Source: an uncultured Candidatus Saccharibacteria bacterium
GTDB taxonomy: Bacteria; Patescibacteriota; Minisyncoccia; UBA6257; UBA9933
NCBI GenBank assembly: GCA_964642155.1
Contig: CAZXNT010000002.1
Location: 65,801 to 129,800 of the forward strand
Direction of reading: 5' to 3'
Length of the DNA stretch: 64,000 nt
This document shows, piece by piece, positions 11,137-41,348 of this stretch. Position numbers and translations under genes: made by a program. The notes beneath the pieces are model-generated. The model was not told the origin of the DNA. It saw only the letters and a list, made by a program, of their open reading frames with translations, and made no database searches. Every line of letters begins with the position of its first letter. Position 1 is the stretch's first letter.

Positions 11137-11147
11137 GCCGCGGTAGC
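11137..11147 (+). pseudogene. 11-nt fragment identical to the 5' end of the downstream tRNA-Phe (GCCGCGGTAGC), abutting a hairpin repeat
   Basis: Exact match to the tRNA-Phe acceptor/D-stem start. The tRNA-like sequence is disrupted beyond that point. Confidence 0.3.
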
Positions 11148-11199
11148 CCCGACGCAAGGTCGGGGCTCCGACCTCCGACGTAAAGTCGGAGCGTCGGAG
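11147..11199. repeat. tandem GC hairpin repeat, family B (CCCCGAC-GCAAG-GTCGGGG then nested CTCCGAC..TCCGACGTAAAGTCGGA..GTCGGAG)
   Basis: Perfect palindromes. The same hairpin pair recurs at 16317-16355 and 41016-41054. Confidence 0.8.
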
Positions 11200-11230
11200 C
11201 TCAATGTAGTTAAGAATTCAAAATAACTAT

Positions 11231-11497
11231 ATGTCTTATGTTTATATTTTAGAAAGTATAAAAGATGGTAGATATTATATTGGGAGTACTATTGATTTAA
11301 AAAAACGATTTTTGCATCATAAAAGTGGCGGAACACCTTCTACTAAAAGATTTGGAGAAATAAAATTAATTTTTAGTCAAGAATTTAATACATTAAAAGA
11401 AGCAAGATATATTGAGAGACGATTAAAGAAATTTAAAAGAAAAGATTATTTAGAAAAGATAATAAACGACGGTTTTATAAAAATTAAATATAAATAA
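11231..11497 (+). CDS. GIY-YIG nuclease superfamily protein (small stand-alone, UPF0213/Slx1-like)
   Basis: YVYILES..DGRYYIGSTIDLKKRFLHH matches the GIY-(x10)-YIG motif with a conserved Arg. 88 aa. Confidence 0.7.
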   Translation: MSYVYILESIKDGRYYIGSTIDLKKRFLHHKSGGTPSTKRFGEIKLIFSQEFNTLKEARYIERRLKKFKRKDYLEKIINDGFIKIKYK

Positions 11498-11498
11498 C

Positions 11499-11570
11499 GC
11501 CGCGGTAGCTCAGTGGTGGAGCGCATCCCTGAAGAGGATGGCGTCGGGGGTTCGATTCCCTCCCGCGGCA
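11499..11570 (+). tRNA. tRNA-Phe (anticodon GAA)
   Basis: Acceptor GCCGCGG/CCGCGGC. D-arm AGCTCAGTGGTGGAGC. Anticodon stem CATCC/GGATG with loop CTGAAGA. T-arm GGGGG-TTCGATT-CCCTC. Confidence 0.9.
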
Positions 11571-11648
11571 CACGAACGAACCATATTTTAATTTTGCTTG
11601 CACTGAGCGAAGTCGAAGTGGGGGAAGAAAATTTTTTAACCACATAAT

Positions 11649-12650
11649 ATGAATACAAAGGGATTTATAAATATTATTTTAATTATCATTATAGCGGTTT
11701 TAATTAGTACGGCAGGTTATTTCATTTTTATTAGAAAATCAGAAGTCCCGATAGAAAAGAATATTATTCCTGATTCTTCTGATTTTTCTCCGGAAAATCC
11801 TCATTCTACTACAACTTCAGTTGTGGCTGATAGTTACGGAAAAGACGTCTTAATAGATGCGGGGGGTTTTAAATTTTCAATAAGAAAAGTCAGTCCTCCT
11901 AAATTTGGTCCGGAGTATACATTAGAAATTGAAACAATGGCTTCTTCTTCGGCCGACTATTTAAACAGAAAAGCATATATTGAATATTATGAGCGTGATT
12001 TAGGTATCAATTCGGATGGTAGGAATATAGTGGACATTGAAACATACCTTGTGTTTGAATATAAAACCGAGTACGGTATCTCAAAAGATTATTTTTACCT
12101 TCATGACAATTTTCCTAGATACATAAGTCGGCTTTTTTTTAGCCTCGATGGAAAAGATCTGTTTCTTACTTTAGATAGCAGTAAGCATAATTATTACGCA
12201 CAGAGCGTGATTCACTTTCAATTCACATCAGGGACCATTATACATGTATATAGTGAAATTTTATGTAGTACGGGTCTCGTCGAAGGCGAACTAATTGGTA
12301 ATATCGGAAAAAGCAATTTGGCGGTTTATATTGAAAAATCACAGGAATATAAAGATTTTCTAAAGACGAAGGATCTCGAATGCTACTATCCTTTTGATGA
12401 ATATGTCGCAGTAGATCCAATTGAAAATCGCGCCTGTCTAAATTCGCTTGAAAAATATTCTGACGATGGTGATTCCGTTTGGCTCTTAAACCTTCAGACA
12501 AGCGAAAGAAAGCAACTCTATAAAAATCTAGAGAACCCCAGTGAATTATGCAGAAATAAGAAACGGGTAGTTAAAAGTGCAGAATGGACAGACTCCGGTA
12601 AGATAAAAATTACAACAACGGATCGAGAATTTCTTGTTAGTCAATTTTAA
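11649..12650 (+). CDS. hypothetical membrane-anchored or secreted protein
   Basis: 333 aa. N-terminal TM or signal anchor. No recognisable domain. Confidence 0.4.
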   Translation: MNTKGFINIILIIIIAVLISTAGYFIFIRKSEVPIEKNIIPDSSDFSPENPHSTTTSVVADSYGKDVLIDAGGFKFSIRKVSPPKFGPEYTLEIETMASSSADYLNRKAYIEYYERDLGINSDGRNIVDIETYLVFEYKTEYGISKDYFYLHDNFPRYISRLFFSLDGKDLFLTLDSSKHNYYAQSVIHFQFTSGTIIHVYSEILCSTGLVEGELIGNIGKSNLAVYIEKSQEYKDFLKTKDLECYYPFDEYVAVDPIENRACLNSLEKYSDDGDSVWLLNLQTSERKQLYKNLENPSELCRNKKRVVKSAEWTDSGKIKITTTDREFLVSQF

Positions 12651-12748
12651 AACAATTATTATACATAATTCAACGCAAAAGACCCATTATTCTCTTCCTT
12701 TTTTAATTTAAAAATATCTTGCCGTCAAAGAAAAACTTGATTCGTTTT

Positions 12749-13273
12749 TTATATCTTCTTCGCCGATTCATCAAAAACTTTTTCCAGAATTTCCAAATCT
12801 TTTTTGCTGATTTTTTTTAATACAAAAGCTGACGCTTTTGCGCGCTGACTAACACGGACTTGACGCGGACTTATACGGACTGGTGGTCTAATGCCGATTC
12901 GCAAACGCCAGAAATTTTTGGTTTTAAGAGATTTTATTATTGATTCAACTCCGTTGTGTCCGGCTGAACCGCGACCGAAGGAAATTTTATATTTTCCGAT
13001 TTCAATATCCGAATCGTCATGGGCGATTAAAATTTCTTCCGGTTTTATGCCGCGTTTTTTTAATGTTTTGGCGACAAAGCCGCCGGATTCATTCATGTAA
13101 ACGTCGGTTTTTAATGGTTTTAAAATTGAAAATTGAAAATTGAAAATTTGAAGGTTTTTTATTAAATAGTCAATAAATAAAAAACCGACATTGTGATATG
13201 TCTTTTCATATTCTTTGCCCGGATTGCCTAAGCCGATAACAAGTTTGATATTTTGCGGGGCTTGATATTTCAT
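12749..13273 (-). CDS. pth: peptidyl-tRNA hydrolase
   Basis: N-terminal LVIGLGNPGKEYEKTYHNVGF and MNESGG motifs. Carries two in-frame repeat insertions (NLQIFNFQFSIL and RISPRQVRVS). Confidence 0.8.
   Translation of the reverse strand: MKYQAPQNIKLVIGLGNPGKEYEKTYHNVGFLFIDYLIKNLQIFNFQFSILKPLKTDVYMNESGGFVAKTLKKRGIKPEEILIAHDDSDIEIGKYKISFGRGSAGHNGVESIIKSLKTKNFWRLRIGIRPPVRISPRQVRVSQRAKASAFVLKKISKKDLEILEKVFDESAKKI
12852..12880. repeat. CGGACTT-unit repeat, family C, inside pth (encodes RISPRQVRVS on the minus strand)
   Basis: ACACGGACTTGACGCGGACTTATACGGA is near-identical to 50966-50993 inside murD. Confidence 0.8.
13122..13150. repeat. tandem heptamer AAATTGA x4, family D, inside pth
   Basis: Sequence AAATTGAAAATTGAAAATTGAAAATTTGA. 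Similar heptamer runs at 23423-23443 and 27343-27368. Confidence 0.7.
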
Positions 13274-13302
13274 AATTTAAATTATAAAATATAGCCACAA
13301 AA

Positions 13303-13851
13303 ATGAAAGCCTTTATTTATGCCATCTGGGAAATCGTTGAAGTGGCTGTTATCGCCATAGTTTCCGTATTGATAATCCGCAACTTTTTAGTTCAGCCCTT
13401 TTTAGTTAATGGCGCCAGTATGGAGCCGAATTTTCACAATAACGATTATTTAATTGTTGATGAAATTTCTTATCGTTTCAAAGAGCCACAGCGCGGGGAG
13501 GTGGTGGTTTTCAAATATCCGGGAGATGAAAGATATTTTTATATTAAAAGAATTATCGGGTTGTCGGGCGAAGAAGTTGAAATTAAAGACGGCAAAGTGA
13601 TTATTTTCAATAAAGAATTTCCCGAGGGTTTTATTTTAAGTGAACCATATCTCCCGAATAATTTGATAACTTCCGGAAATAAAAGAGTAAAAATAGACGA
13701 TGATAAATATTTTGTTTTGGGCGACAACAGGAATTTTAGTTTTGATTCAAGAGGTTGGGGATTACTTGATAGGAAAGAAATTGTCGGTATAACCCGTTTG
13801 CGCCTTTGGCCGCTTAATAAAGTAATGGCGTTTGAGAAACCGGCGTATTAA
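13303..13851 (+). CDS. lepB: signal peptidase I
   Basis: GASMEP (Ser box), KRIIGLSGE (Lys box) and GDNRNFSFDSRGWG box E. Confidence 0.85.
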   Translation: MKAFIYAIWEIVEVAVIAIVSVLIIRNFLVQPFLVNGASMEPNFHNNDYLIVDEISYRFKEPQRGEVVVFKYPGDERYFYIKRIIGLSGEEVEIKDGKVIIFNKEFPEGFILSEPYLPNNLITSGNKRVKIDDDKYFVLGDNRNFSFDSRGWGLLDRKEIVGITRLRLWPLNKVMAFEKPAY

Positions 13852-13881
13852 AAAAATCTAAAATTCAAAATCCTAAATAAT

Positions 13882-15204
13882 ATGCCAAAAATTAAAAAAC
13901 AGTCGAAAAAGAAAAAAGCGGTAAAATCAAAAAAAGAAAAAGTGATTTTACAGTCGCCGAAAGGCATGCGCGATATTTTACCGAATGACCAGCCGTTTTG
14001 GGAAAAAGCGCGAAAATCAGTGAATAAAATCGCCGACTCTTTTAATTTTTTAAGAATTGACACGCCGATTTTAGAAACAGCCGATATTTTTGAACGCACC
14101 GGCACGGGAACGGACATTGTTGAAAAACAAATGTATTTCGTCAAATCCAAAGGAGAAAATCGTTTGGTTTTGAGGCCGGAAGGAACCCCGTCCGTAATGA
14201 GAGCTTACATTCAACACGGTTTGTCAAAAATATCCCAACCGATAAAACTTTTTTATATTGGTCCGGTTTTCAGGCATGAACAGCCTCAATCCGGAAGATT
14301 CCGACAGCATCATCAGGTTGGCTTTGAAATTTTAGGAGGAAATTCCGACCCGATTTACGACGCGGTCGCGATTTTAATTCTTTTTCGGTTGCTTGAAGAA
14401 TTAAAAATAAAAAATTTAATCGTTCAAATTAACAGTATTGGCTGTAAATCGTGTCGTTCGGCTTATGTTAAAAAGCTTCAGGAATATTATAGAAACAAGC
14501 AAAGCAAAATTTGCAAAGATTGTCATCAGCGATTTCCGGTTCGCCCCCTGCGTCTTCTTGATTGCAAAAATGAAACTTGCGCTCAGATTAAAACCGGCGC
14601 ACCGCTCATTATAGACAGACTATGCAACAATTGTAAAAATAATTTAAAGGCGGTTTTGGAGCATTTGGACGAGCTTAAAGTTCCATATTCCATAAATCCT
14701 TATTTGGTGAGGGGATTGGATTATTACAACGGCCCGGTATTTGAAATTTTTACCGAACAATCTTCGGAAATCAATTTCGCTTTGGCAGGCGGCGGAAGAT
14801 ATGATTATTTGGCGGAAATGCTCGGCGGAACAAAGACATTCGCGGTTGGCGGCGGGATGGGAATGGAGCGCGCGATTGAAGTTATGAAATTTCAGCAATT
14901 AGCCGGTTTAGCTAAGAACGAATTAAAAGTTTTTTTGGTCCACATCGGGAACGAGGCGAAGAAAAAAAATCTTATTATTTTTGAAGAATTAAGAAAGGCC
15001 GGCATCAAGGTTTCCGAGTCGTTTGGCAAAGATTCTCTTAAATCCCAGCTTCGGGTGGCTAATAAAGCTAACGCGATATTAACTTTAATTCTTGGGCAGA
15101 AAGAAGTTTTTGAAGAAACAATCATAATCAGGAATATGAAAACCGGCGTTCAGGAAACCGTGCCGATTAGCAAAGTGGTGGAAGAAGTAAAAAAAAGACT
15201 ATAA
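13882..15204 (+). CDS. hisS: histidyl-tRNA synthetase with a Lys-rich N-terminal extension
   Basis: PKGMRDILP, RPEGT and a Cys-containing LNSIG-type insertion domain. Motif 3 is GGGRYD. Confidence 0.9.
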   Translation: MPKIKKQSKKKKAVKSKKEKVILQSPKGMRDILPNDQPFWEKARKSVNKIADSFNFLRIDTPILETADIFERTGTGTDIVEKQMYFVKSKGENRLVLRPEGTPSVMRAYIQHGLSKISQPIKLFYIGPVFRHEQPQSGRFRQHHQVGFEILGGNSDPIYDAVAILILFRLLEELKIKNLIVQINSIGCKSCRSAYVKKLQEYYRNKQSKICKDCHQRFPVRPLRLLDCKNETCAQIKTGAPLIIDRLCNNCKNNLKAVLEHLDELKVPYSINPYLVRGLDYYNGPVFEIFTEQSSEINFALAGGGRYDYLAEMLGGTKTFAVGGGMGMERAIEVMKFQQLAGLAKNELKVFLVHIGNEAKKKNLIIFEELRKAGIKVSESFGKDSLKSQLRVANKANAILTLILGQKEVFEETIIIRNMKTGVQETVPISKVVEEVKKRL

Positions 15205-15214
15205 AGCTTTGCTT

Positions 15215-15302
15215 TAATTCAGAATTAAGAATTAAGAAAAAAATTAAACCGCTAATTCTGAATTTATAATTCTGAATTTTGAATTAGCGAGCGAAGCGAG
15301 CT
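15215..15302. repeat. family A inverted-repeat element (GAATTMAGAATT units) ending exactly at the HIT gene ATG
   Basis: Sequence ..TTCAGAATTAAGAATTAAG..AATTCTGAATTTATAATTCTGAATTTTGAATTAGCGAGCGAAGCGAGCT-ATG. Its tail matches the one at 31611-31630. Confidence 0.75.
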
Positions 15303-15638
15303 ATGGATTGCTTATTTTGCAAAATCGCCAATAAAAATATAGCAACAGATTTCATTTTTGAAGATGACAGTATTATGGTTTTTAAAGATATTCATCCGTC
15401 AGCGCCTATCCATCACTTAATAGTTCCCAAAGAGCACATTCAGTCAATAAACCATTTGGAAAGCAATCATCAAGAAATTATTTCCAAAATGATTTTTATT
15501 GCCAAGAAAATGGCGGAGAATTTGGGATTAAAAGGATATAAATTAGTTTTTAACGTCGGCCGTGAAGGCGGGCAGGTGATTGACCACTTGCATTTACATC
15601 TCTTGGGCGGGTGGAAGAAATCCCCGGAAATTATTTAA
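15303..15638 (+). CDS. HIT family hydrolase
   Basis: Histidine triad HLHLHLLGG. N-terminus CLFCKI. Confidence 0.85.
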   Translation: MDCLFCKIANKNIATDFIFEDDSIMVFKDIHPSAPIHHLIVPKEHIQSINHLESNHQEIISKMIFIAKKMAENLGLKGYKLVFNVGREGGQVIDHLHLHLLGGWKKSPEII

Positions 15639-17503
15639 TCCAGCTTATAAATAAAGATTGATGTTCCAACGCGGTAATCCGGTTTATGCGGATTTTTTAT
15701 TTTTTGGAGCCATTGGTATTCGTCTTCGGGATTGCGTTGTTGTCCCGGATGAAGTTTTCCCGTAGCGTTTTGTAAAGTATTTATTGAAACGGCCAGCCAT
15801 TTTATATTTTCGTAAATCGGATTGTCTCGCGAAGATTGCCAGTATTCAACTTTATTGCCCAGATAATATTTGGGATTTCCTCCGCCGAAATAATCAATTG
15901 CAATTTTATCAATATTTTGGCCGGTCGGAGGATTATCAACAAACTTTTTGAGCTGTTTTAAATCCTGTCCCCAGTCATAATTTGAATCAACGGCATTTTT
16001 ATAGCCGTTCCAAATTCCGCCACCAAACTGATTGAAATAAGAAAGATAATGCGGGGTGGCGAATAAAGTTTCCAAAGCAAACCATAGAAGTAGCATGGCT
16101 AATAAACATTTGCGGATTGTTGATGAATTAACCATTTTTTTGGCTGCGGAGGCCGTTAGAATATAAATAAAAGGCATTGTCGGCAAAATATGGCGGATGC
16201 CGATATTAAGCGGACTTTTGATGCTATAGAGCCAGTAAAAAATCGCGAAAGACAGCATTGAAAATTCAGCAAAATGGAGAGCGAGATAGTCGTTTAAATT
16301 GGTTTGTAGTTTATAGCTCCGACGTAAAAGTCGGAGTCCCGACCTTGCGTCGGGATTTATAGTCCGTAGTTTTTTATAAATTAACCAAATACTAAATAGA
16401 AAAGTGAGTAAGATTAAAATTAAAGACGGAATAGGCTCTTTTAAGATGAATAAAATCGGAAAATAATACCACCAGCCGCTGGCCGAAACTTCTCCGAGAA
16501 AATATCCGGTATTGCCACCGGAAGAGCGTTGAATCACCATTAAAACGCCAAGCATATATTCGGCGAAGGGACGTAAAAATTTATTGCCGGACATCCAAAT
16601 ATTGGCGTCCGCCAGGCATCGCATCGGTTTGCAATTTTCGCCGGCTGGAGTCGGTTTTCCGGCAAAGGAAGTTAAAGTAATTTCCGTGTCGGATTTTTGT
16701 TTTTCTATTGGGTAGTTTATCGTAAATATGAAATAAACGGCGTAAACAACGGCATAGCCAATCAAAAAAATAACAAAAATGTTTTTTATGTATTGGAAAG
16801 CTTGAATAAAAAACTTTTTAGATATAGTTACTTCGCGGATATAAAAAACAATAATTAAAAAAATAAAAAAGGGGATAATTAAAACCGAGGAAAATTTAAG
16901 AAGTTGGGCAATACCAAATGAAACGCCGGCGAAAACGAGATATTTTTTTGATGGGGTTGAAAGAAATTTTACAAAAAAATATAAGGCGCAAAAAATTCCC
17001 AAAGCCGCGCCGATATCGGTTGTTACATAATGCCCGTGCGCTAATACGGTTGGCGATAGTCCGAATAAAAAAGCCGGCAACAAAGCCCACCAGCGGCCGA
17101 TAATTTCTTTTGACCAAATATAAATAAAAATTATTAAAATCAATGTTAATAGCATCGGTCCCAGCCGTGACCATTGGATTATTTTATCGGCGTCATTGCC
17201 TGATTCGTATAAAAATTGCGCGCCCGCGACCCATTGACCGTTAATGTCCATTTGCCATGAAGATTTATCAATTGGAAAGCCGAGATTTTGGAAAATTAAA
17301 GGAAAAGCCGCAATCGCTTTTACCAAGGGCGGATGTTCAGGGTTTAACCGATAATCAAGATATTTTACATATCCGTATCCAGCCGGAATATGCGCCAATT
17401 CGTCCATTGTAGCGGATTCTTGAAGCGAAGCGTTAAGCATTAAACCGAAAGAAATTAAAACAATCACGCCGAGCAATATCCAATTAAGATTATTTTTTAT
17501 CAT
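15635..17503 (-). CDS. GT-C family membrane glycosyltransferase (GT39/GT83, PMT/ArnT-like)
   Basis: 622 aa and polytopic. A DE motif in the first loop (SATMDELAH). Contains the in-frame family B hairpin pair. Confidence 0.7.
   Translation of the reverse strand: MIKNNLNWILLGVIVLISFGLMLNASLQESATMDELAHIPAGYGYVKYLDYRLNPEHPPLVKAIAAFPLIFQNLGFPIDKSSWQMDINGQWVAGAQFLYESGNDADKIIQWSRLGPMLLTLILIIFIYIWSKEIIGRWWALLPAFLFGLSPTVLAHGHYVTTDIGAALGIFCALYFFVKFLSTPSKKYLVFAGVSFGIAQLLKFSSVLIIPFFIFLIIVFYIREVTISKKFFIQAFQYIKNIFVIFLIGYAVVYAVYFIFTINYPIEKQKSDTEITLTSFAGKPTPAGENCKPMRCLADANIWMSGNKFLRPFAEYMLGVLMVIQRSSGGNTGYFLGEVSASGWWYYFPILFILKEPIPSLILILLTFLFSIWLIYKKLRTINPDARSGLRLLRRSYKLQTNLNDYLALHFAEFSMLSFAIFYWLYSIKSPLNIGIRHILPTMPFIYILTASAAKKMVNSSTIRKCLLAMLLLWFALETLFATPHYLSYFNQFGGGIWNGYKNAVDSNYDWGQDLKQLKKFVDNPPTGQNIDKIAIDYFGGGNPKYYLGNKVEYWQSSRDNPIYENIKWLAVSINTLQNATGKLHPGQQRNPEDEYQWLQKIKNPHKPDYRVGTSIFIYKLD
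16317..16355. repeat. family B hairpin pair (39 nt) inside the GT39 CDS, flanked by a 7-bp direct repeat TTTATAG
   Basis: CTCCGACGTAAAAGTCGGAG plus TCCCGACCTTGCGTCGGGA. TTTATAG at 16310-16316 and 16356-16362. Confidence 0.8.
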
Positions 17504-18363: not shown

Positions 18364-18774
18364 ATTATAAATTATATGTAAGAATAGTCAGCGTTATTTA
18401 CATCAAGCGTAAAATCTTTTTCCGCCGTATAAACAGCAAACACAAAATCATTTCTTTAACCCGCTCACGCCCCGCTTTGCGGGACTGCGCTTCCGTTAAG
18501 GTTTCAGAAATAATTTTATGTTTGCTGTTTTCTCCTACCCCGACATGCTGGCTTGAAAAAGATTTTACGTCTGATTCTATCTTTATATCTCGGACAAATT
18601 GTTTTTCAGAACATCCCGCAGGGCTGGTGGGCTTGGTCTCGGAGCGAAGCGGAGAGCCGCCAGCCCGAGGGCGAAGAAAATTTTGCCGCTGGAGCAAAAT
18701 TATTCTGCTTCTGAAAAATAATTTGTCCGAGAATATTGTAAGTAACGCTATAAAATCTTACAATTATATTATAA

Positions 18775-19089: not shown

Positions 19090-19094
19090 GGGGG

Positions 19095-19122
19095 TTGACA
19101 AGATTTTTAACGCGCCTATAAT
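19095..19122 (+). promoter_or_regulatory. near-consensus sigma70 promoter upstream of the 23S-5S rRNA genes
   Basis: TTGACA (19095-19100), 16-nt spacer, TATAAT (19117-19122). About 260 nt upstream of the 23S 5' end. Confidence 0.6.
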
Positions 19123-19544
19123 TGAAAGATTATTAATAAAATGACAATGCTAAAAAACATATCAAGCGGATGAAGACTTCGGCAAGTTTTTTTATTGTCT
19201 TCACCCCGCTTTCAAGCGGGATTTTTATTTTTTATGTCAACTAAAGCTTTGTTTTTTGAAAAAGTTTCAGTTGGTGTGAAAATCAGAATTTGTTGGTTGG
19301 TTAGTTTTTTAAAAATTGAATACAGGAAAATAAAAATAAAAGTAAAGTTATCCAACTTCTTGAATTCTGAATTTCAAGAAGATTTATTTAAGGGCGTATG
19401 GTGGATGCCTTGACATCAAACAGCGATGAAGGACGTGGCGTGGCTGCGATAAGCTTCGGGGAGGCGCTTAGCAACCTTTGATCCGAAGATTTCCGAATGG
19501 GGAAACCCTGCGCTGAAAACCAGCGTAAGCGCTGCTTTTCAGCG

Positions 19545-19628
19545 AATTTAGGATTACAAATTAAGAATTTAGAATTACGGAAAAATTATTTTTTAATTCT
19601 GCATTCTGCATTCTGAATTTTGAATTCG
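19545..19628. repeat. family A inverted-repeat element inserted in a 23S rRNA 5'-domain helix tip
   Basis: AGCGAATTTAGGATTACAAATTAAGAATTTAGAATTACGG..AATTCTGCATTCTGCATTCTGAATTTTGAATTCGCT. Perfect terminal inverted repeat AGCGAATT/AATTCGCT. Confidence 0.75.
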
Positions 19629-20029
19629 CTGCAAAGCAGCGTGGCTTACCCGCTGAAGTGAAACATCTCATTAAGCGGAGGAACAGAGAATAATAATTTA
19701 TTCCCCTAGTAGCGGCGAGTGAAAAGGGAGGAGCCTAAACTTATAAAAAAATTCGCAAGAAAATTTTTATAAGGGTTGCAAGACAGAGACGCTCTTTTGC
19801 TTTTCGCGAAGTCCTGAACTTATTGAAGGATTTCGCGATTTGTGAAAGGTGGAAGAGTTACAAATTCTTTGGTTAGCCAAATTAGCTGGAAAGCTGAACC
19901 ATAGCGGGTGATAGTCCCGTAGGCGAAAACCGAAGAACTCTTTAGTTTTTGATCTTAAGTACCTCGATGACAGGATGCTTCGAGGGAATCATCCGGCACT
20001 ATCCGGAAAGGCTAAATATGTTTGATGAT

Positions 20030-20066
<37 letters not shown>

Positions 20067-22004
20067 CAGGCCGGCGAGGCCGATGAAATAGTATCTGAAA
20101 CCATATGTCTACAAGGAACGGAAGTCCGCAAGGACGACCGTGTGCCTATTGAAGAATGAGCCAACGAGTTTATTTTACTCCTTTGTCTAAGCTTTACGGA
20201 GCGGAGGCATAGGGAAACCGAGTCTTAATAGGGCTACTATTAAGGGGTGGAATAAGACCCGAAGCCAAGCGAGCTTGCCCTGATCAGGATGAAGCGGAGG
20301 TAAAACTCTGTGGAGGTCCGAACCGGTTGGTTGTGCAAAACCTTCGGATGAATTAGGGTAAGAAGTGAAAAGCTAATCGAGCTTGGTAATAGCTGGTTCT
20401 CTCCGAAATAGCTTTAGGGCTAGCGTCGGGCAAAAATATATCTGGGGTAGAGCTACTGGTTGAGAAGTAATGGGGGAAACCTCGGCTTCTTAGTCAAACT
20501 CCGAATACGGATATAAATCGGTCCGGCAGTTAGAATGTGGGGGCTAAGCTCCATATTCAAAAGGGAAACAGCCCAAATCGTCGTCTAAGGTCCCTAAATA
20601 TTTGCTAAGTGTTAAAGGTAGTGATTCGCCATAGACAGATAGGAGGTTGGCTTAGAAGTAGCCATCCTTTAAAGAGTGTGTAACAACTCACTATTCGACG
20701 GCGAATTGCGCCGAAAATTTACCGGGGCTAAGCAAGTTACCGAAGACACGAATTTCGCCGCAAGGCGAAGTGGTAGGAGAGCATTTCAAACGCACTGAAG
20801 CCGGACTCGCGAGAGCCGGTGGAGTGTTTGGAAGAGAGAATGTTGGCATGAGTAACCACAATCCCAATGAGAATTTGGGACTCCGAAAATCCAAGGGTTC
20901 CTCCGTAACGGAAATCGACGGAGGGTTAGGCGATCCTAAGGCAATGGCGAAAGCCGCAGCTGATGGGAAGCTGGTTAATATTCCAGCCCCTCTGTATAGT
21001 TCGATGTGGTGACGAAGAAAATAAGATTGAGCGTCTTAATGGTTTGACGTTGTTTGTTTCCAGAATTTTTCGACAGGCAAATCCGTCGGAATGCTTTTAA
21101 CGGCAAAATTCGGAAACCGAAAAAATTCGCTTACGGGCGGAAATTCAATCGAAGAGTCTTCCGAGAAAAACCTCTAAGAATAGCTATATAGAGATCGTAC
21201 CGTAAACCGACACAGGTGGGTGAGGCGAGAAGCCTAAGGAGAACGAGTGAGTCTTCGTTAAGGAACTCGGCAAAAAAGCGGCCGTAAGTTCGCAATAAGG
21301 CCTGCCCGCAGCAATGCGGGCCGCAGCGAAAGTATCTCTAGCGACTGTTTAACAAAAACACAGCTCCCTGCGAACTCGCAAGAGGATGTATAGGGGGTGA
21401 TGCCTGACCGATGCGAGAAGGTCAAGCTTGGCGGTGCTTTGCAGCAATGTGGAGTGCTGACTGGGTTAAGCCCTCGTCAATGTCAGCGATAACTATAATC
21501 GTTCTAAGGTAGCGCAATTCCTTTTCGGGTAAGTTCCGAAGCGCACGAATGGTATAACGACTGGAGAACTGTCTCAACGAAGAGCTCGGTGAAAATGCGA
21601 TTCCCGTGAAGACGCGGGATACCTGCAACGGGACGAAAAGACCCCGGGAGCTTTACTGCAGCTTGATATTGTTTTTAGAATTTTGATGCGTAGCGTAGTG
21701 GGGAGCCTTTGAAGCTTCGCTTTCGGGCGGAGTGGAGGCGTCAATGAAACACCCATCTTTAAAATTTTAAAGACTAACCTTGGCGGCAAAAACGTCAGGG
21801 AACAGTGTCTGGCGGGCAGTTTAAATGGGGCGTTTTCCTCCTAAAAAGTAACGGAGGAGTTTATTAAGGTCGGCTAGGAGCGGATGGAAATCGCTCTCGT
21901 CGTGTAAACGCACAAGCCGGCTTAACTGCAAGGCCTACAAGCCGCGCAGACGCGAAAGCGGAAGTTAGTGACCCGACAATTCTTTATAGAAAGGTTGGAG
22001 ACAC

Positions 22005-22038
<34 letters not shown>

Positions 22039-22233
22039 GTTGCCCGAGAGTCCTTATCGACGGCAACGCTCGGCACCTCGATGTCGGCTCATCACAGCGC
22101 GGGGGTGAAGAAGCTCCCAAGCGTTTGGCTGTTCGCCAATTAAAGTGATACGTGAGCTGGGTTCAAACCGTCGTGAGACAGGTTGGTCTCTATCTGTTGC
22201 AGGCGTTGATATTTGAGGGAAGTTGACCCTAGT

Positions 22234-22957
22234 AAGAAATTGCTACTTCGCGGAGTAATCCGCGATGACAATTTGGCTAATAACGGTGAAGTCTTAATAT
22301 TTGATTATCATAATCGGTCTGAATGATAATTTACTTGAGGACCAAGAAATGTTAAGATAATACCGTGGGAAGTCAATCTAAAATAAATTTAGCATATATC
22401 GCTGGTTTTCTTGATGGCGATGGAAGTCTGATGCTCCAAATTAAAAAACGGAAAGATAGCAATAAATCGTATAGATTTATGGCTACTATTTGTTTTTATC
22501 AGGATTCGCGGCATGAAAAACCGCTTTTCTGGATACAAAAAGTTTTAAACATCGGATATTTATCTAAAAGAAAAGATGGCATAAGTGAATTAAGAATCAA
22601 TGGTTTTAAACAAATCGAAAAAATTCTTAATAATTTATCACCATTTATTAAATTTAAGAAAATTCAAGCGAAAATTCTTTTAAAGTCTGTAATTTTTCTT
22701 CAAAAATCTGATTTAAAAGAAAAAGATTTGAGGATATTAGTAAATAATATTATTCAAATTCAATCTGAGAATTATGTTTCTAAGAAAAAGCGGACAAAAG
22801 AAGAATTGTTTAAAATTTTAGGTTTGACCCCGTAACGACTGAGTCTAAAAAAGACAAGATAGGAATTTTAAAATTTCTATAATATGCCGATATCCAATCC
22901 CGCCATGGCGGGAGGATAAAGATATAGTCTACACACATAGTGATATGTGATTATGTG
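22234..22957 (+). mobile_element. intron in 23S rRNA (group I-type inferred) carrying a LAGLIDADG homing endonuclease ORF
   Basis: Exon junction rebuilds the conserved CCUAGU|ACGAGAGGACC. 5' exon ends in U and the insert ends in G. The HE ORF is internal. Confidence 0.7.
22365..22835 (+). CDS. LAGLIDADG homing endonuclease (single-motif, homodimer type)
   Basis: LAYIAGFLDGDGSL motif near the N-terminus. 156 aa, I-CreI-like size. Confidence 0.85.
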   Translation: MGSQSKINLAYIAGFLDGDGSLMLQIKKRKDSNKSYRFMATICFYQDSRHEKPLFWIQKVLNIGYLSKRKDGISELRINGFKQIEKILNNLSPFIKFKKIQAKILLKSVIFLQKSDLKEKDLRILVNNIIQIQSENYVSKKKRTKEELFKILGLTP

Positions 22958-23447: not shown

Positions 23448-24242
23448 ATGGGCAAGCGTTTAATTAAACAAATAATTTATGGCTCCGGTTTTTCGGCAAT
23501 CGTTTTTTTGATTTTAATGGCGATTTATTTTATTTGGCTGAAGCCAGAGCCGACTTGTTCCGACGGACGTCGGAATCAAAGCGAAACCGGCGTTGATTGC
23601 GGCGGGCCGTGCGCGGCTTGTGAAATAAAAACATTATTGCCGTTTCAAACAATTTGGCAGACTAAGTTTTCAATAAACGGCAAAGCGGCTCTTGCGGCGC
23701 AGATAAAAAATTCCAATTCAACTTACGGCGCGAATCGCTTCTCTTATTCTTTTGAAATTTATGGGAAAAGCGGCAATAAAATCAAAACCATTTCCGGGAA
23801 TTCTTTTATTTACGCTTCGGAAATTAAATATATTTTTGAGCCGACCGAAATAAATTATTCGGATATCGGCGAAATTAAAATTTTTACTTCGGTCGTTCAA
23901 TGGAAAAAGAACGAAGAATTTTTAAAACCGAAAACCCAAATTAGGGAAAAATTGACTAAAATAAGCGATAGTGGAAAAGGGGTTGAGGTGAGCGGATACA
24001 TCGTCAACGACAACCCCTATCCTTTAAAAAAGGTAAGGTTTGTCGGATTTTTAGCGACGTCAAATAATATTAAAATCAGTGTTTCCAAAACGGAATTGGA
24101 TAATTTAAAAGCTTTTGAAGAAAGATATTTTAAAATAATTTTTCCGAAAGATATCGATTTGCTTTATTCGGGCGCGTCTTCGGAATTAAGTTTTATTTTA
24201 GCCGACCCAAACAGAACGGAAATATATGTTGAAGCAATTTGA
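23448..24242 (+). CDS. hypothetical membrane-anchored protein with a CxxC pair
   Basis: 264 aa. N-terminal TM. CSDG..CGGPCAAC. No recognised domain. Confidence 0.4.
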   Translation: MGKRLIKQIIYGSGFSAIVFLILMAIYFIWLKPEPTCSDGRRNQSETGVDCGGPCAACEIKTLLPFQTIWQTKFSINGKAALAAQIKNSNSTYGANRFSYSFEIYGKSGNKIKTISGNSFIYASEIKYIFEPTEINYSDIGEIKIFTSVVQWKKNEEFLKPKTQIREKLTKISDSGKGVEVSGYIVNDNPYPLKKVRFVGFLATSNNIKISVSKTELDNLKAFEERYFKIIFPKDIDLLYSGASSELSFILADPNRTEIYVEAI

Positions 24243-33548: not shown

Positions 33549-33563
33549 TTTACTATCAATTAT

Positions 33564-34322: not shown

Positions 34323-34397
34323 AATATAATTATACCATTTCTATATTTATTTGCAATGGGCGAGAATAGGTAATATTTATCAGCTTTTCACCCCTTT

Positions 34398-35351: not shown

Positions 35352-35413
35352 ATTCTATAAAAATATATTATTATATTTACAGTATAAAATCAAAATATAA
35401 GGAGGAAAAGATT

Positions 35414-35509
35414 ATGAAGAGGCGGTTTGAAGATAAGATAAAAAAATATCTAATAATAAGTCTATTCCTTTTTACTTTTCTTTATTTACTGGTTTTTATT
35501 AATAATTAA
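35414..35509 (+). CDS. candidate small hydrophobic peptide (31 aa, MKRRFEDKIKKYLIISLFLFTFLYLLVFINN), unannotated sORF
   Basis: Perfect SD AAGGAGG 8 nt upstream and a TTGACA-type promoter at about 35345. Followed by a second 10-codon sORF (35552-35584, SD AAGGAGGTG) and a terminator. Confidence 0.3.
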   Translation: MKRRFEDKIKKYLIISLFLFTFLYLLVFINN

Positions 35510-35607
35510 CAAGATTAAAAAGTTATTTTATAAAAGAAAGGAGGTGATGTTATGAGAGCAATGGTAGCTTTTGTATTTATATAGACTGGAAAGAACGCAG
35601 TGCAGTA

Positions 35608-35642
35608 CCTGCCATGGCAACCCCATGGCAGGTTTTATTTTT
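35608..35642 (+). terminator. rho-independent terminator (CCTGCCATGG-CAACC-CCATGGCAGG plus T-run)
   Basis: 10-bp perfect stem followed by TTTTATTTTT on the plus strand. Confidence 0.6.
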
Positions 35643-35655
35643 AATAGTTAAAAAG

Positions 35656-37404: not shown

Positions 37405-37437
37405 AATTAAAATAATAATATCATATCTTTGCTTAAT

Positions 37438-40400
37438 TTATAACTCTACCGCGCTTTGGGCGATAAGTTTCGGTTCATTATCTTTTTGTGAAAGTCGTCC
37501 CTCAATAATTAAAACGTTATTTTCTTGCCAGAGTTCTGGATTTTTTACAAGCGTATCGTTGAAAATAACTATTTCCACATTGTCGTTCAAGTCTTCAATC
37601 TTGGCGAAAATCATTGGCTGGCCGTTTTTAGTGGTTATTTTTTTAATGCTCGTCAAAACGCCGGCAATTCTATATAAGCCATTGCCGTTTTTATTATTGG
37701 AAATTTTTATGGTTTTTAATTCTTTAATCGGTTTTACTTTATTCATTAACAGTTTTCGTTCATGCCTATTTAATGGATGTTCGGAAATATAAAGACCAAC
37801 CAATTCTTTTTCCCATTGAAGTTTTTCTTTGGTTGAAGCGGAAGTTGCGGGTTTTAATTGTAAAACGCCGTTTGACGAATAATCCGAGCCGAAAAGGCTG
37901 TTTTGCGACAAGGTTTGCGATTTTTTAAGATTTTGGCTGAATGACAATATCTCGTCTATATTCGCCAAAAGTTGGCCGCGTTCGGAATTTAAAGAATCAA
38001 AAACACCCGCCTTAATCAAACTTTCAAGAGATTTTTTATTCAAATCTTTATGAAGGACGCAGTTTATAAAATCGGAAAAATTTTGGAATGGTCCGGATTT
38101 AAATCTTTCTTGGATAATCGCTTCAACGACATTGGCGCCGACGTTTTTAATGCTTAGCAATCCAAAACGAATGGCGGATTTTCCTTCCGGAGCGAAATCA
38201 ACAAAACTGGCGTTGATGTCCGGCGGAAGCACTGAGACGTTCATTTTTTTCGCTTCATTAATAAGAAACGCGATTCTTTCCACGTCGCCGCTGTCGGCGT
38301 TGAATAACGCCGTGGTGAATTCAATCGTATAATGGGCTTTCAAATAAGCGGTTCTATAGCCGATTAAAGCGTAGCAAGCGGCATGGCTTCGATTGAATCC
38401 ATACTTGGCGAAAGGCGGGAAAAGTTCCCAGATAGCTTCGGCGGTTTTTTGTTCAATGTCGTTATTTTTCATTCCTTCAATTAGTTTTTCTTTTTGGATA
38501 TCAAGCAGGAATTTTATTTTTTTCCCGATGGCTTTTCTTAATATGTCCGCTTCCGCCAAACTGAATCCCGCCAAATCTCTGGCAATTCTCATCATTTGTT
38601 CCTGATAAACTCCGATGCCGTAAGTATTTTTTAAAATCGGTTCAAGTTTCGAGTGAAGATATTTAACTTCTTCAAGCTTATGTTTTCTCTTGATATAGCT
38701 CGGAATAAGTTCTATCGGCCCCGGCCGGTAAAGCGCGTTCATGGCAATAATGTCTTCAAATTCTGTTGGTTTTAATTCTTTTAAATATCGGCGCATGCCG
38801 TCGGATTCAAGCTGAAATACGGAAGAGGTTTCGCCTTTTTGTAAAAGCTCAAAAGTTTTTTTGTCGTTGAGCGGAAGTTCGGAAATTTCTATTTTTTCAT
38901 CTCGTATTTCTTTGACGAGTTTGATTGTTTCTTCAATAATCGTCAGATTTTTTAATCCGAGAAAATCCATTTTTAACAATCCTATGGCTTCAACGCTATT
39001 CATGTCAAATTGGGTAATAATAACATCGGTGGTTTGCGGCGCGTATTGTAAGGGAACGTAATTGGTGAGGGATTCTTTACTGATAACGACTCCGCAAGCG
39101 TGAACCGAAGCGTGTCGCGCCACGCCTTCAAGATGTTTTGCCGCTCCAATGATTTTTTGGGCGTCGGGATTCATATCGCAGAAATTTCTTAATTCTTGAG
39201 ACGCTTCCAGCGCTTCTTCTATGCCTAGGCCGAAGGGCATAAGTTTGGCGATTTGGTCGCCTAAAATATAGGGGAATCCGAGCGCCCGCGTGCTGTCGCG
39301 AACAGCTCCTCTTGCCGCCATTGTTCCAAATGTGATTATTTGCGCCACCTTGTCATCGCCGTATTTTTGTTTGACGTACGCCAGAATTTCATCGCGTCGT
39401 TTATCCGCGAAATCAATGTCAATATCCGGCATGGAAATTCTTTCCGGATTTAAAAATCTTTCAAAAAGCAAATCGTATTTTAGGGGGTCAATGTCGGTGA
39501 TGCCCAGAATATAAGAAATAACGCTGCCGGCCGCCGAACCTCTGCCCGGGCCGACGGCAATGCCGTGATTTTTCGCCCAATTGACGAAATCTTGAACAAT
39601 CAAAAAGTAATCAGCAAATTTCATTTTTTTAATAACTTCAATTTCATAATTAATCCGTTCCATTATTTTTACGTCGGGTTTCGGATAACGATTATGGATT
39701 TTTTCATTTATTATTTTTTCTAGTTCTTCATTAGCGGTGAGGCCGTTTTCCAACGGAAAAGACGGTAAAAGAATTTGACCGAGATTTAATTCCACATTGC
39801 AGCGTTCGGCGATTTTTACCGTATTGGCGACCGCTTCCGGAAAATCTTTAAAAAATTCTTCCGCTTGTTCTTGGGAAAACATTGAAAAGTCATCTGATTT
39901 TATTGAGAGCCTGCCCTCGTCGCTTATTTTATTTCCGGTTTGAACCGCCAGAAGAATATCTTGATAGTCGGCGTCTTCGGGATTGAGATAGTGAATGTCT
40001 TGGGTGGCGACAAGCGGGATGCCGGTTTTTTCATGAATTTTAATTATGCCTTCCTGTGATTTAACAACTTCCTTAATGTGCGGATGGTGCCCGATTTCCA
40101 GAAAAAAATTTCCTTTGCCGAAAATTTCTTCATATTCCAAAGCCATTTTTTCCGCCGCTTCAAAATTATTATTAATGATTAGTTGCGGTATTTCGCCCTT
40201 GGGACAACCAGATAAAGCGATAATGCCTTCGCCGTATTGGCGGAGAAGTTCTTTATCCACTCTTGGTTTGTAATAAAATCCTTCCAAGCTCGCCTTGGTT
40301 GCCAATTTTATTAAATTTTGCCAGCCGATGTTATTTTTCGCCAATAAAGTGAGGTGAAAATATCTATCGTCATTCTTGCCAACGGTTTTTTCAAATCGGC

Positions 40401-40617
40401 TTTTAGGGGCGACATATGTTTCAATCCCCAAAATCGGTTTGATTTCCGCTTTTTTGGCTTTTTGGTAAAATTCAACGGCGCCGTAAAGATTGCCGTGGTC
40501 TGTTATGGCGAGCGCTTTCATTCCTAATTCTTTGGCGCGATTGATAAGTCCGTCGATTTTAGCAAGACCGTCTAAAAGAGAATAATGCGAATGAGTATGG
40601 AGGTGAACAAATTTCAT
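37438..40617 (-). CDS. dnaE: DNA polymerase III alpha subunit
   Basis: PHP N-terminus MKFVHLHTHSHYSLLDG, polymerase core and a C-terminal OB domain. 1059 aa. Confidence 0.9.
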   Translation of the reverse strand: MKFVHLHTHSHYSLLDGLAKIDGLINRAKELGMKALAITDHGNLYGAVEFYQKAKKAEIKPILGIETYVAPKSRFEKTVGKNDDRYFHLTLLAKNNIGWQNLIKLATKASLEGFYYKPRVDKELLRQYGEGIIALSGCPKGEIPQLIINNNFEAAEKMALEYEEIFGKGNFFLEIGHHPHIKEVVKSQEGIIKIHEKTGIPLVATQDIHYLNPEDADYQDILLAVQTGNKISDEGRLSIKSDDFSMFSQEQAEEFFKDFPEAVANTVKIAERCNVELNLGQILLPSFPLENGLTANEELEKIINEKIHNRYPKPDVKIMERINYEIEVIKKMKFADYFLIVQDFVNWAKNHGIAVGPGRGSAAGSVISYILGITDIDPLKYDLLFERFLNPERISMPDIDIDFADKRRDEILAYVKQKYGDDKVAQIITFGTMAARGAVRDSTRALGFPYILGDQIAKLMPFGLGIEEALEASQELRNFCDMNPDAQKIIGAAKHLEGVARHASVHACGVVISKESLTNYVPLQYAPQTTDVIITQFDMNSVEAIGLLKMDFLGLKNLTIIEETIKLVKEIRDEKIEISELPLNDKKTFELLQKGETSSVFQLESDGMRRYLKELKPTEFEDIIAMNALYRPGPIELIPSYIKRKHKLEEVKYLHSKLEPILKNTYGIGVYQEQMMRIARDLAGFSLAEADILRKAIGKKIKFLLDIQKEKLIEGMKNNDIEQKTAEAIWELFPPFAKYGFNRSHAACYALIGYRTAYLKAHYTIEFTTALFNADSGDVERIAFLINEAKKMNVSVLPPDINASFVDFAPEGKSAIRFGLLSIKNVGANVVEAIIQERFKSGPFQNFSDFINCVLHKDLNKKSLESLIKAGVFDSLNSERGQLLANIDEILSFSQNLKKSQTLSQNSLFGSDYSSNGVLQLKPATSASTKEKLQWEKELVGLYISEHPLNRHERKLLMNKVKPIKELKTIKISNNKNGNGLYRIAGVLTSIKKITTKNGQPMIFAKIEDLNDNVEIVIFNDTLVKNPELWQENNVLIIEGRLSQKDNEPKLIAQSAVEL

Positions 40618-40637
40618 AATGGTATTATAATCAGATT

Positions 40638-41348
40638 ATGCGTAAAAGAAAATTAAGTCAAAAATTTATTATCGGCATAGATGAGGTGGGGCGGGGAGCG
40701 CTGGCGGGTCCGGTAACCGTGGCAGCCTTAGTATTGCCACAGAATTTTCATAAAATTATCCGCGTTAATCCGCTTCTAAAAAAAGAAAAATTCCTGCCTG
40801 CCGGTAAGCAGACGCGTCAATTCGCTTCTATAATAAGGGATTCTAAAAAATTAACTTCGCGGCAAAGAGAGATTTGGTTTTCTTATATTAAAAAATTATC
40901 GCTATCCTATAGGATAGCATCCGTGTCACCGAAAATTATTGATAAAATTAATGTTTCTCAAGCGGCAAATTTAGCCGCTACCCGCGCAATCAAAAAATTA
41001 ATTGAAAACTATAAGTCCCGACGTAAAGTCGGGACCCCGACCAAAGCGTCGGGGTTAAAAACTAAAAACTGCAAAATATTTCTCGACGGCGGATTATTTC
41101 TTAATTCTAAATTCTGCATTCTGAATTCCACCACAGTGGTAAGGGGCGATGAAAAAATCCCCGCAATCTCCTTAGCCTCCATTGTCGCCAAAGTTCATCG
41201 TGACAAATTAATGAAACGGCTTCATAAAAAATATCCGCGCTACGATTTTATCAATAATGTCGGTTATGGCACGAAAAAGCACATTAAGGCGTTGCGCAAA
41301 TTCGGCCATTCGCCAATCCATCGCAAAACTTTTCACGGCGTTGTATAA
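40638..41348 (+). CDS. rnhB: ribonuclease HII
   Basis: IGIDEVGRGALAGPV and DSK motifs. Carries two in-frame repeat insertions (family B at 41016-41054, family A at 41098-41130). Confidence 0.85.
   Translation: MRKRKLSQKFIIGIDEVGRGALAGPVTVAALVLPQNFHKIIRVNPLLKKEKFLPAGKQTRQFASIIRDSKKLTSRQREIWFSYIKKLSLSYRIASVSPKIIDKINVSQAANLAATRAIKKLIENYKSRRKVGTPTKASGLKTKNCKIFLDGGLFLNSKFCILNSTTVVRGDEKIPAISLASIVAKVHRDKLMKRLHKKYPRYDFINNVGYGTKKHIKALRKFGHSPIHRKTFHGVV
41016..41054. repeat. family B hairpin pair (39 nt) in frame inside rnhB
   Basis: TCCCGACGTAAAGTCGGGA plus CCCCGACCAAAGCGTCGGGG. Confidence 0.8.
41098..41130. repeat. family A repeat (TTCTTAATTCTAAATTCTGCATTCTGAATTCC) in frame inside rnhB
   Basis: Encodes LNSKFCILNST. 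Confidence 0.75.

Follow-up and report, generated by a model that had tools for sequence, protein, structure and literature searches.

How a short, GC-rich pair of hairpins came to lie in frame in several conserved genes, and next to a tRNA gene, of an AT-rich genome is the question raised by the DNA analysed here, a stretch of 64,000 nucleotides (nt) from an uncultured Candidatus Saccharibacteria bacterium (GenBank assembly GCA_964642155.1, contig CAZXNT010000002.1, positions 65,801 to 129,800 of the forward strand; the window hereafter). A preliminary description of the window had named this hairpin pair Family B. On balance, we favour a reading in which Family B is a DNA double-hairpin element resembling repetitive extragenic palindromic (REP) sequences, which inserts without target-site duplication (TSD), has its home in a nuclease-bearing cassette of its own and is mobilised by that nuclease. 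The parts of this reading differ in strength. That Family B is a dispersed DNA palindrome generating no TSD is highly probable; that the Slx1-like nuclease is its mobiliser is a tentative proposal, and we infer both this role and the chemistry of insertion.

Hairpin pairs in the window and across Patescibacteria

A pattern scan of the window recovered nine CCGAC-N3-8-GTCGG hairpins, starting at positions 2774, 2794, 11149, 11175, 16319, 16339, 23560, 41018 and 41037. The count with CCGAC-N4-7-GTCGG was 9, compared with a mean of 0.04 in 100 dinucleotide-preserving shuffles of the window, and simple hairpin pairs, of which the window contains three, occurred in none of 100 dinucleotide shuffles. 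The nine hairpins make up four hairpin-pair copies, three of them in frame in genes, and one single hairpin, as follows (ORF, open reading frame):

2773 to 2811, copy 4, in frame in lysS (ORF 2524-3900, plus strand): GCCGAC-GCGCTG-GTCGGC followed by TCCCCGAC-TCAAC-GTCGGGGA; peptide ADALVGSPTQRRG
11147 to 11199, copy 1, inside the D-arm of a tRNA-Phe fragment: three stems, one nested in the loop of another
16317 to 16355, copy 2, in frame in the GT39/PMT gene (ORF 15635-17503, minus strand): CTCCGAC-GTAAAA-GTCGGAG followed by TCCCGAC-CTTGC-GTCGGGA
23558 to 23575, single hairpin, inside ORF 23448-24242: TTCCGAC-GGAC-GTCGGAA; z -2.3
41016 to 41054, copy 3, in frame in rnhB (ORF 40638-41348, plus strand): TCCCGAC-GTAAA-GTCGGGA followed by CCCCGAC-CAAAGC-GTCGGGG; peptide SRRKVGTPTKASG

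Perfect pairs were found at all three places given in the preliminary description (11147-11199, 16317-16355 and 41016-41054); its total of three was one too low, the pair at 2773-2811 in lysS having been overlooked. The formula it proposed, YCCCGAC-N5-GTCGGGR, is too strict: the unit is NNCCGAC-loop-GTCGGN'N', of 19-20 nt with loops of 5 or 6 nt. The canonical element of ~39 nt consists of two such units side by side, 0-2 nt apart and in variable relative orientation. Copy 1 is three-stemmed, with CCCCGAC-GCAAG-GTCGGGG followed by an outer stem, CTCCGAC...GTCGGAG, around an inner CTCCGAC-GTAAA-GTCGGAG. Folding the copies as DNA single strands gave energies between -14 and -24 kcal/mol (z -3.7 to -5.2; -24.3 kcal/mol and z -4.9 for copy 1). 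CCGAC hairpins represent about half of the strong GC-rich hairpins of the window, and its GC content of ~37% agrees with the earlier picture of GC-rich islands in an AT-rich genome. The rnhB gene with its element is present in three independent assemblies (L001-L003). Sequencing runs SRR13723394, SRR13723396 and SRR13723397 from the source site contain the genome. The single hairpin at 23558-23575 may be a solo or decayed member of the family.

Two known categories were tried for the copies and rejected. Known structured RNAs gave no Rfam match at the copies at gathering score, and a sensitive search of the copy 1 region returned only noise (E >= 0.07). An intrinsic terminator was discarded as well: there is no terminator-like site at copy 1, and three copies lie in the middle of ORFs.

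We scanned one genome per species with the pair pattern and obtained at least 119 stretches, in keeping with the earlier idea of a dispersed repeat family with further copies. Most belong to Patescibacteria of many classes, including Nomura-, Taylor-, Adler-, Kerfeld-, Doudna-, Wolfe-, Kaiser- and Yanofskybacteria and Saccharibacteria, and we regard Family B as endemic to Patescibacteria; the few matches in DNA above 60% GC look chance-like. The loops GTAAA/TTTAC and CGAAGC/GCTTCG recur. In the loci of at most 60% GC there are 108 copies, 24 in long ORFs, 23 within 400 nt of a tRNA gene and 61 elsewhere. Host genes outside the window encode EF-G, RpoD (twice), MnmA, glycosyltransferases and DUF763, and identical peptides appear in unrelated proteins, SRRKVGTPTKASG being found both in the RNase HII of the window and in a Saccharibacteria sigma factor. 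Spread by phages was ruled out: only 3 matches were found in 2.9 million viral contigs, all in 60% GC DNA and with unrelated loops, as expected by chance.

Some of these matches have features of their own. In Taylorbacteria MHSK01 (L034, L041, L045, L055, L060, L064, L072, L109, L116 and L121), the loops are GCTTCG and CGAAGC, so that the pair forms one long palindrome reminiscent of REPINs (doublets of REP sequences); around it, conservation extends to a longer unit, TCGTATNCATCC-pair-AGTCGTAT, of which there are at least 17 copies. A variant pair (TGCCGAC-ACTTTG-GTCGGCA and TCCCGAC-CGAAGT-GTCGGGA) is found twice with conserved flanks, in L026 and L042, from a long-read metagenome-assembled genome labelled Bacteroidetes. 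A few other matches carry labels outside the candidate phyla radiation (CPR), namely Gammaproteobacteria, Bdellovibrionales, Omnitrophota and Methylomirabilis. Such labels could reflect mis-binning or a wider host range.

Insertion, loss and stem constraint

The three host genes in the window encode lysyl-tRNA synthetase (LysRS; 2524-3900), a GT39/PMT glycosyltransferase (15635-17503, minus strand) and RNase HII (40638-41348). Protein alignments revealed 13 extra residues in each of them relative to orthologues, and the intragenic copies are, as first described, exactly 39 nt or 13 codons long and in frame. The protein junctions read VLK-ADALVGSPTQRRG-KDNLK in LysRS, TIN-PDARSGLRLLRRS-YKLQT in GT39 (13 residues between N and Y, alternatively printed as NPDARSGLRLLRRS) and NYK-SRRKVGTPTKASG-L in RNase HII.

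The comparison of GT39 and RNase HII orthologues suggested in the preliminary description, here extended to lysS, showed true and exact insertions relative to empty sites. In lysS, the empty allele of L123 (90% amino-acid (aa) identity) reads TTG AAA/AAG GAT, with the slash at the junction, where the window has CTT AAA-(39 nt)-AAA GAC; in rnhB, orthologue DNA places the 39 nt between AAG and TTA. No flanking duplication was found at these two copies when empty and filled sites were compared. The GT39 copy is missing from L131 and from P0122-P0124, and since the latter orthologues are 88-90% identical, it must be young.

The GT39 copy is indeed flanked by the direct repeat TTTATAG, which had been taken to suggest a 7-bp TSD, but the empty site contradicts this interpretation. 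In L131 it reads AAA CTA CAA ACC ACA AAC/TAC AAA CTA CAA ACT, that is, (TTTGTAG)n on the plus strand of the window. Both heptads therefore already stand side by side as native tandem repeats, and the element lies exactly between them with a net gain of 39 nt, hence without duplication on insertion. A fresh 7-bp duplication would have given 46 nt and a broken frame, which refutes a TSD at GT39. The empty-site DNA at lysS, GT39 and rnhB together rules out target-site duplication.

An element occupies the same lysS site in L125 (87% protein identity) and in the Wolfebacteria L132-134 (73%). All 28 stem nt are identical among the copies of the window, L125 and L132-134, whereas the loops differ (GCGCTG, GCTTTG or GTCTTA in the first hairpin, TCAAC, TTCGC or CTTGC in the second), as do neighbouring synonymous sites. 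The site is filled in 13 of 121 LysRS sequences, a distribution that needs at least 8 changes of state on a neighbour-joining tree; P0241, the nearest relative of the window LysRS, is empty, and the more distant P0242 is filled. Loss is also documented. The lysS genes of L218 and L132 are identical at 1334 of 1335 nt, bar a 39-nt indel bounded by GAC...GAC, and because L218 retains the first GCC of the element, its state represents a recent in-frame deletion within one population. The two alleles coexist in the Hainich wells. An intrinsic multiple-of-three length of the element was ruled out, as inserts in non-coding tRNA fragments measure 38-99 nt without such a bias.

The constraint on the stem was analysed over all loci, with 297 distinct hairpins. 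Stem length is exactly 7 bp, with five invariant pairs (CCGAC) and two variable outer ones. Watson-Crick pairing at these outer positions reaches 94% and 92%, where 45% and 37% would be expected, and it involves several types of pair; positions 3-4, next outward, are unpaired. G-T and A-C mismatches are equally rare (8 v 5 and 7 v 10 overall), also on the strand transcribed with the GIY-YIG gene described below (3 v 4 and 15 v 15); the G-U tolerance typical of RNA is not seen in these mismatch counts. Intragenic copies are found in both orientations relative to transcription. The equality of the mismatches and the use of both orientations, in other words a strand-symmetric constraint, indicate a DNA palindrome rather than an RNA helix.

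Other hairpins were encountered at or near the same genes. In L129, the GT39 orthologue (L129:8600-8700, ~codons 380-395) carries in frame a different, 36-nt GC hairpin pair, CCCGCCCTTGGACGGGACCCCGCCAACGGCGGTGGC, encoding PALGRDPANGGG. This pair represents a second hairpin family, 3 nt from the Family B site of the window and in the same protein loop, which makes that loop a tolerated hotspot. At two further positions in the OB-fold domain, short insertions that keep the frame and encode hairpin-like peptides (G[PALSKAE]G; GGRTS...GGSTS) are present in six LysRS orthologues (P0259, P0270, P0280, P0267, P0271 and P0291). In the window, positions 40737-40835 (rnhB codons ~34-66) encode ~20 extra N-terminal residues compared with most RNase HII orthologues, including FLPAGKQ (TTCCTGCCTGCCGGTAAGCAG), and peptides of the LPAGR/K type are present at insertion sites of other RNase HII orthologues such as P0018; the FLPAGKQ stretch might belong to yet another hairpin family. 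It seems that these genomes commonly carry GC hairpins of several families inserted in frame.

The window contains further inverted repeats. A looser relative of Family B had been suspected at about 18595-18680, but this region does not belong to the family: CCGAC is missing from it, and shuffled sequence folds equally well (z -1.0). It is a GC-rich imperfect inverted repeat, GGGCTGGTGG...CCGCCAGCCC (18590-18690), surrounded only by short unannotated ORFs and located ~700 nt upstream of the 23S rRNA gene (19378-22298), whose match to the Rfam model covers its full length. ORF 42787-44886, whose counterpart in locus L001 has NAD-dependent DNA ligase domains, contains a perfect 14-bp palindrome that is unrelated in sequence to Family B, TCGCGATTACTTGT-cga-ACAAGTAATCGCGA (44407-44437).

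The tRNA and GIY-YIG cassette

Copy 1 had been described as intergenic and fused to a tRNA-Phe fragment. The fusion was confirmed, an 11-nt segment being identical to the 5' end of the nearby tRNA-Phe; what had been overlooked is that the copy is more than intergenic and belongs to a cassette of tRNA fragment, GIY-YIG gene and tRNA, which gives the principal clue to the biology of Family B. Apart from the hairpins, the cassette comprises:

11092 to 11119, plus strand: promoter-like site, TTGAAA-16-TATGAT with TG; putative function, from consensus match and synteny
11137 to 11147, plus strand: duplicated tRNA-Phe 5' end, positions 1-11, GCCGCGGTAGC; exact 11-nt match to 11499-11509
11200 to 11209, plus strand: tRNA-Phe-like continuation of the D-arm, CTCAATGTAG versus CTCAGTGGTG (CTCAATG versus CTCAGTG)
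11231 to 11497, plus strand: 88-aa stand-alone GIY-YIG gene of the UPF0213 / bacterial Slx1-like type
11499 to 11571, plus strand: intact tRNA-Phe(GAA), 1 nt (11498) after the stop codon of the GIY-YIG gene

The order on the plus strand is thus promoter-like site, tRNA-Phe positions 1-11, hairpins, D-arm continuation, GIY-YIG gene and intact tRNA-Phe. In the syntenic relative L125, sequence homologous to the promoter-like site directly precedes tRNA-Phe, which indicates a naive locus. L135 matches the window cassette, with the same three stems as copy 1 and different loops. L129 has kept a remnant, in which tRNA-Phe positions 1-11 are followed by 33 nt, including the 3' end of the nuclease cassette, and then by the tRNA.

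Ten loci found by the hairpin pattern share the cassette order, with other tRNAs, and ~13 more have a hairpin-split tRNA fragment just upstream of an intact tRNA, without a nuclease gene. For an unbiased sample, we collected 80 nuclease homologues from metagenomes by a scan with a 5-sequence alignment, irrespective of hairpins. A tRNA gene on the same strand follows the nuclease gene within -4 to +26 nt in 62 of 77 homologues, at least one CCGAC hairpin lies at most 160 nt upstream in 56 of 76 (more if long or nested loops are counted), and in 35 of 58 the upstream region exactly repeats the first part of the tRNA over 8 nt or more. Upstream of the nuclease gene there are 10.7 hairpins per kb, 64 times the 0.17 per kb of the remaining sequence in these loci. 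The positional link between the hairpins and GIY-YIG/tRNA cassettes is therefore tight.

Cassettes were found at Asn, Thr, Met, Lys, Ile, Val, Phe, Arg, Ala, Pro and Glu tRNAs, and nucleases 65-75% identical to that of the window adjoin different tRNAs. On either side of the hairpins, the split fragment invariably comes from the cognate tRNA. Among the sampled homologues, all cassettes with a tRNA duplicate carry hairpins in the duplicate, and hairpin-free cassettes have no duplicate. A mirror arrangement also exists, consisting of an intact tRNA, the nuclease gene, hairpins and the 3' part of the same tRNA. Loops in cassettes stretch to 10-30 nt and contain nested hairpins.

Eukaryotic Slx1 is an established structure-specific endonuclease. 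The 88-aa protein matches Pfam PF01541 (GIY-YIG; E 5.8e-15) and the solved UPF0213 structures 1zg2 (E 1.5e-6) and 1ywl (E 2.3e-4) of the Protein Data Bank, both classed as bacterial Slx1-family proteins in a paper (PMC1564403) that also cites the eukaryotic enzyme. Judging from these similarities, the partner gene encodes a stand-alone bacterial Slx1-like / UPF0213 GIY-YIG nuclease of ~90 aa.

Other tRNA rearrangements were observed in these loci. At L135:1257-1420 and on the reverse strand of L129 (~13640-13810), a different, intact tRNA-Arg(TCT) is located upstream of a remnant of the window-type tRNA-Arg, which lacks its first ~26 nt and in L129 also has a GC hairpin in the anticodon loop; at L125:17623-17690, the 3' half of another tRNA comes after tRNA-Arg. 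The tRNA loci of this clade are repeatedly overwritten by tRNA gene replacement. In L142, L144, L145, L151, L154 and L174, a long insert, not bridged by ARAGORN, breaks the tRNA that follows the nuclease gene, either within the anticodon loop or after it; in L174 this insert resembles a group I intron. Cassettes and other tRNA-invading elements co-occur. In L129 (GCA_040960315), a LAGLIDADG gene and a 115-aa GIY-YIG gene (1718-2191 and 3397-3744) are a few kb away from the GT39 gene, in the direction in which the window has its 23S rRNA gene. In the window, a 12-bp hairpin, CCCCGTATAAAA-acaaag-TTTTATACGGGG (51333-51362), ends 8 nt before tRNA-Asn (51370-51444), which has no GIY-YIG cassette although tRNA-Asn is the commonest cassette host elsewhere.

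Proposed mobilisation, alternative readings and comparable systems

In the reading that we favour, the element spreads by insertion without target duplication and is later lost by deletion; in genes, only stop-free copies of a length divisible by three survive, translated as a 13-residue loop. Its home is the junction of a selfish cassette, with the nuclease gene between the intact tRNA and a partial duplicate, and the hairpins splitting the D-arm of that duplicate. The Slx1-like nuclease might act on extruded hairpins and cut at their base, which would excise the pair or start its copying; the solitary lysS, GT39 and rnhB copies would then be non-autonomous offshoots mobilised in trans. A staggered long cut, Campbell-type recombination of an excised circle or capture of hairpins at a nuclease break are possible routes to a joint origin of the cognate tRNA duplicate and the hairpins.

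Several points weigh against this reading. The link to the nuclease is correlative, and we know of no strand-transfer activity of an 88-aa GIY-YIG domain. Many copies lack a GIY-YIG gene in the 8 kb of their loci, as at 15 or more loci of one Taylorbacteria genome. The hairpins could accumulate in tRNA fragments only because these fragments are harmless sites with a favoured sequence (..TAG/C..), and the recurrent occupancy of lysS could reflect recombination between lineages rather than repeated insertion. The compared sequences provide no direct sighting of a transposition event, and insertion sites in coding sequences share no target motif beyond AT-rich flanks. Finally, the four copies of the window differ from one another in stems and loops, and do not represent a recent burst from a single master copy.

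The hairpins might instead act mainly as RNA, as a 5' stem-loop stabilising or gating the GIY-YIG/tRNA transcript or as a processing signal, with the copies in genes as by-products. This is unlikely, even though copy 1, ~20 nt downstream of the promoter-like site, would form the 5' end of the GIY-YIG/tRNA-Phe transcript. Several cassettes also have only 10-15 nt between the last stem and the start codon, GTCGGAG contains GGAG, and the conservation of stems with variable loops is as expected of a structured RNA. An RNA role is at odds, however, with gene copies in both orientations and with G-T mismatches being no commoner than A-C on the transcribed strand; in addition, no T-run follows the stems of copy 1, and no Rfam match rose above noise.

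Somewhat less likely again are strict REPs mobilised by a Y1 transposase of the IS200/IS605 type, that is, a REP-associated tyrosine transposase (RAYT), inserting 3' of a tetranucleotide such as GTAG, with GIY-YIG as a mere neighbour. TSD-less insertion and seamless empty sites fit peel-and-paste transposition, intragenic REP dimers have been catalogued (PMC3733652), and (G/A/T)TAG precedes copies 1 and 2 as well as most copies embedded in tRNAs. Yet the 5' flanks of the window copies are GTAG, ATAG, TAAG and TAAA, the copies in lysS and rnhB following AAA and AAG, and 5' flanks vary at other sites in coding sequences. TAG belongs to the target and not to the element: it is seen where a tRNA (positions 8-10) or the heptad repeat provides it, and nowhere else. 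The flank profile is symmetric. The gene that consistently adjoins the hairpins is GIY-YIG, and tblastn with three Y1 transposase queries found no match in 1.3 Mb of element-bearing loci, a weak test in view of its queries and of the partial genomes covered.

A reading of the inverted repeats as operators, bound in double-stranded form by a dimeric protein such as a repressor of the GIY-YIG gene and spread only secondarily, seems improbable to us. An invariant 5-bp half-site, inverted pairs with a fixed spacing of 5-6 bp, two adjacent sites just upstream of the gene and the strand-symmetric constraint would all suit an operator. Half-sites do not require the covariation of the outer stem positions, though, and the cassette loops of 10-30 nt with nested hairpins would destroy the spacing of an operator but not a hairpin. 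Copies in the genes for EF-G, RpoD or LysRS have no plausible regulatory role.

It is very improbable that the 13-residue peptide is the selected unit, as a protein module gained by enzymes. Stem-encoded residues are conserved in LysRS, and 16 of 23 intragenic copies use a frame centred on V-G-x-P-T, compared with 40% expected (p = 0.004), but we take this bias as selection for tolerable peptides, some frames simply being better tolerated. Moreover, the three gene copies of the window encode three different peptides, the frozen synonymous sites of the stems point to DNA, and identical elements are present in non-coding tRNA fragments. A classical miniature inverted-repeat transposable element with a 7-bp TSD, the TSD being the one proposed in the preliminary description from TTTATAG on both sides of the 16317-16355 copy, deserves hardly any credence, being refuted at the three comparable sites by the empty-site DNA described above and lacking terminal inverted repeats beyond the hairpin arms or a related insertion-sequence element in the window or loci.

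REPs and REPINs (PMC3733652; PMC3116915), with which RPE-4 and RPE-6 of the Rickettsia palindromic elements (RPE) have been linked by their equation with CGTC REPs (PMC3733652), are likewise short, GC-rich palindromes of 20-40 nt, dispersed, often paired and without target duplication. They are occasionally in frame in conserved genes, where REPs encode 20-30 residues, and are tied to one single-copy, nuclease-type gene flanked by repeats. In contrast, Family B has no conserved unpaired GTAG or CGTC tag and is not predominantly extragenic, with three of four window copies and 24 of 108 elsewhere in long ORFs. Its units are 0-2 nt apart in variable relative orientation, its linked gene is Slx1-like GIY-YIG beside a tRNA rather than RAYT, and its hosts are Patescibacteria.

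RPE were reportedly described by Ogata and colleagues in 2000 as selfish palindromic DNA in frame in essential genes. Family B resembles them in that its palindromes, too, lie in frame in genes that are essential, in a genome that is reduced and AT-rich, and are tolerated as additional peptides on the protein surface. RPE-1 measures 100-150 nt and is unrelated in sequence and taxon, so that Family B is similar in behaviour, but not a member. To our knowledge, RPE have no link to a tRNA or GIY-YIG cassette.

Double-hairpin elements were reportedly found in chytrid mitochondria by Paquin and colleagues in 2000, and we know of no description of a defined partner nuclease or tRNA-duplicate architecture for mitochondrial hairpin elements. 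Like those of chytrids, the GC clusters of yeast mitochondria and the repetitive hairpin-forming elements of sponge mitochondria (PMC2800124), Family B consists of GC-rich double hairpins in an AT-rich genome. Further parallels are intergenic, RNA-gene and in-frame protein-gene sites, presence or absence varying among close relatives, and genomes shared with homing-endonuclease genes; the mitochondrial elements differ in being organellar and of unrelated sequence.

Phage T4 SegB (PMC2330249) offers a parallel for the cassette: its free-standing GIY-YIG gene resides in a cluster of tRNA genes and is passed on together with them. Unlike the partner here, which is a bare 88-aa Slx1-like domain accompanied by a hairpin-carrying partial tRNA duplicate, SegB possesses a DNA-binding domain, and it lacks hairpin repeats.

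Most knowledge of small palindromic repeats comes from Proteobacteria, Rickettsia and mitochondria, and for most of their families we know of no enzyme that moves them. Family B is one family with an invariant core shared across a superphylum of ultra-small bacteria, in frame in core translation, transcription and replication genes. We found no description of the motif, of REP-like repeats or of GIY-YIG/tRNA cassettes in Patescibacteria in the full-text literature, whose searchable part is incomplete, and the hairpin-nuclease-tRNA system has an appreciable chance of being a mobile element of a new type. Possibly, though we put this forward with reserve, the hairpin pair and the 88-aa nuclease make up an undescribed CPR mobile system that invades tRNA genes of many specificities, with the hairpins as its cis-acting site. 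Every invasion would leave, beside an intact copy, a partial duplicate of the cognate tRNA with a hairpin-split D-arm. The hairpins would also spread alone, as the smallest known nuclease-dependent element, in frame into the genes for EF-G, RpoD, LysRS, RNase HII and other core proteins. With its candidate partner, a minimal and presumably structure-specific nuclease that sits tightly against tRNA genes, the movement of RAYT-less REP-like hairpins, a question of long standing, becomes testable on a single protein of 88 residues and a substrate of 39 nt. In practical terms, the insertions lengthen proteins, with recurrent peptides such as SRRKVGTPTEASG in unrelated CPR proteins, and yield strain-level indels, and the tRNA pseudo-fragments can mislead annotation and binning.

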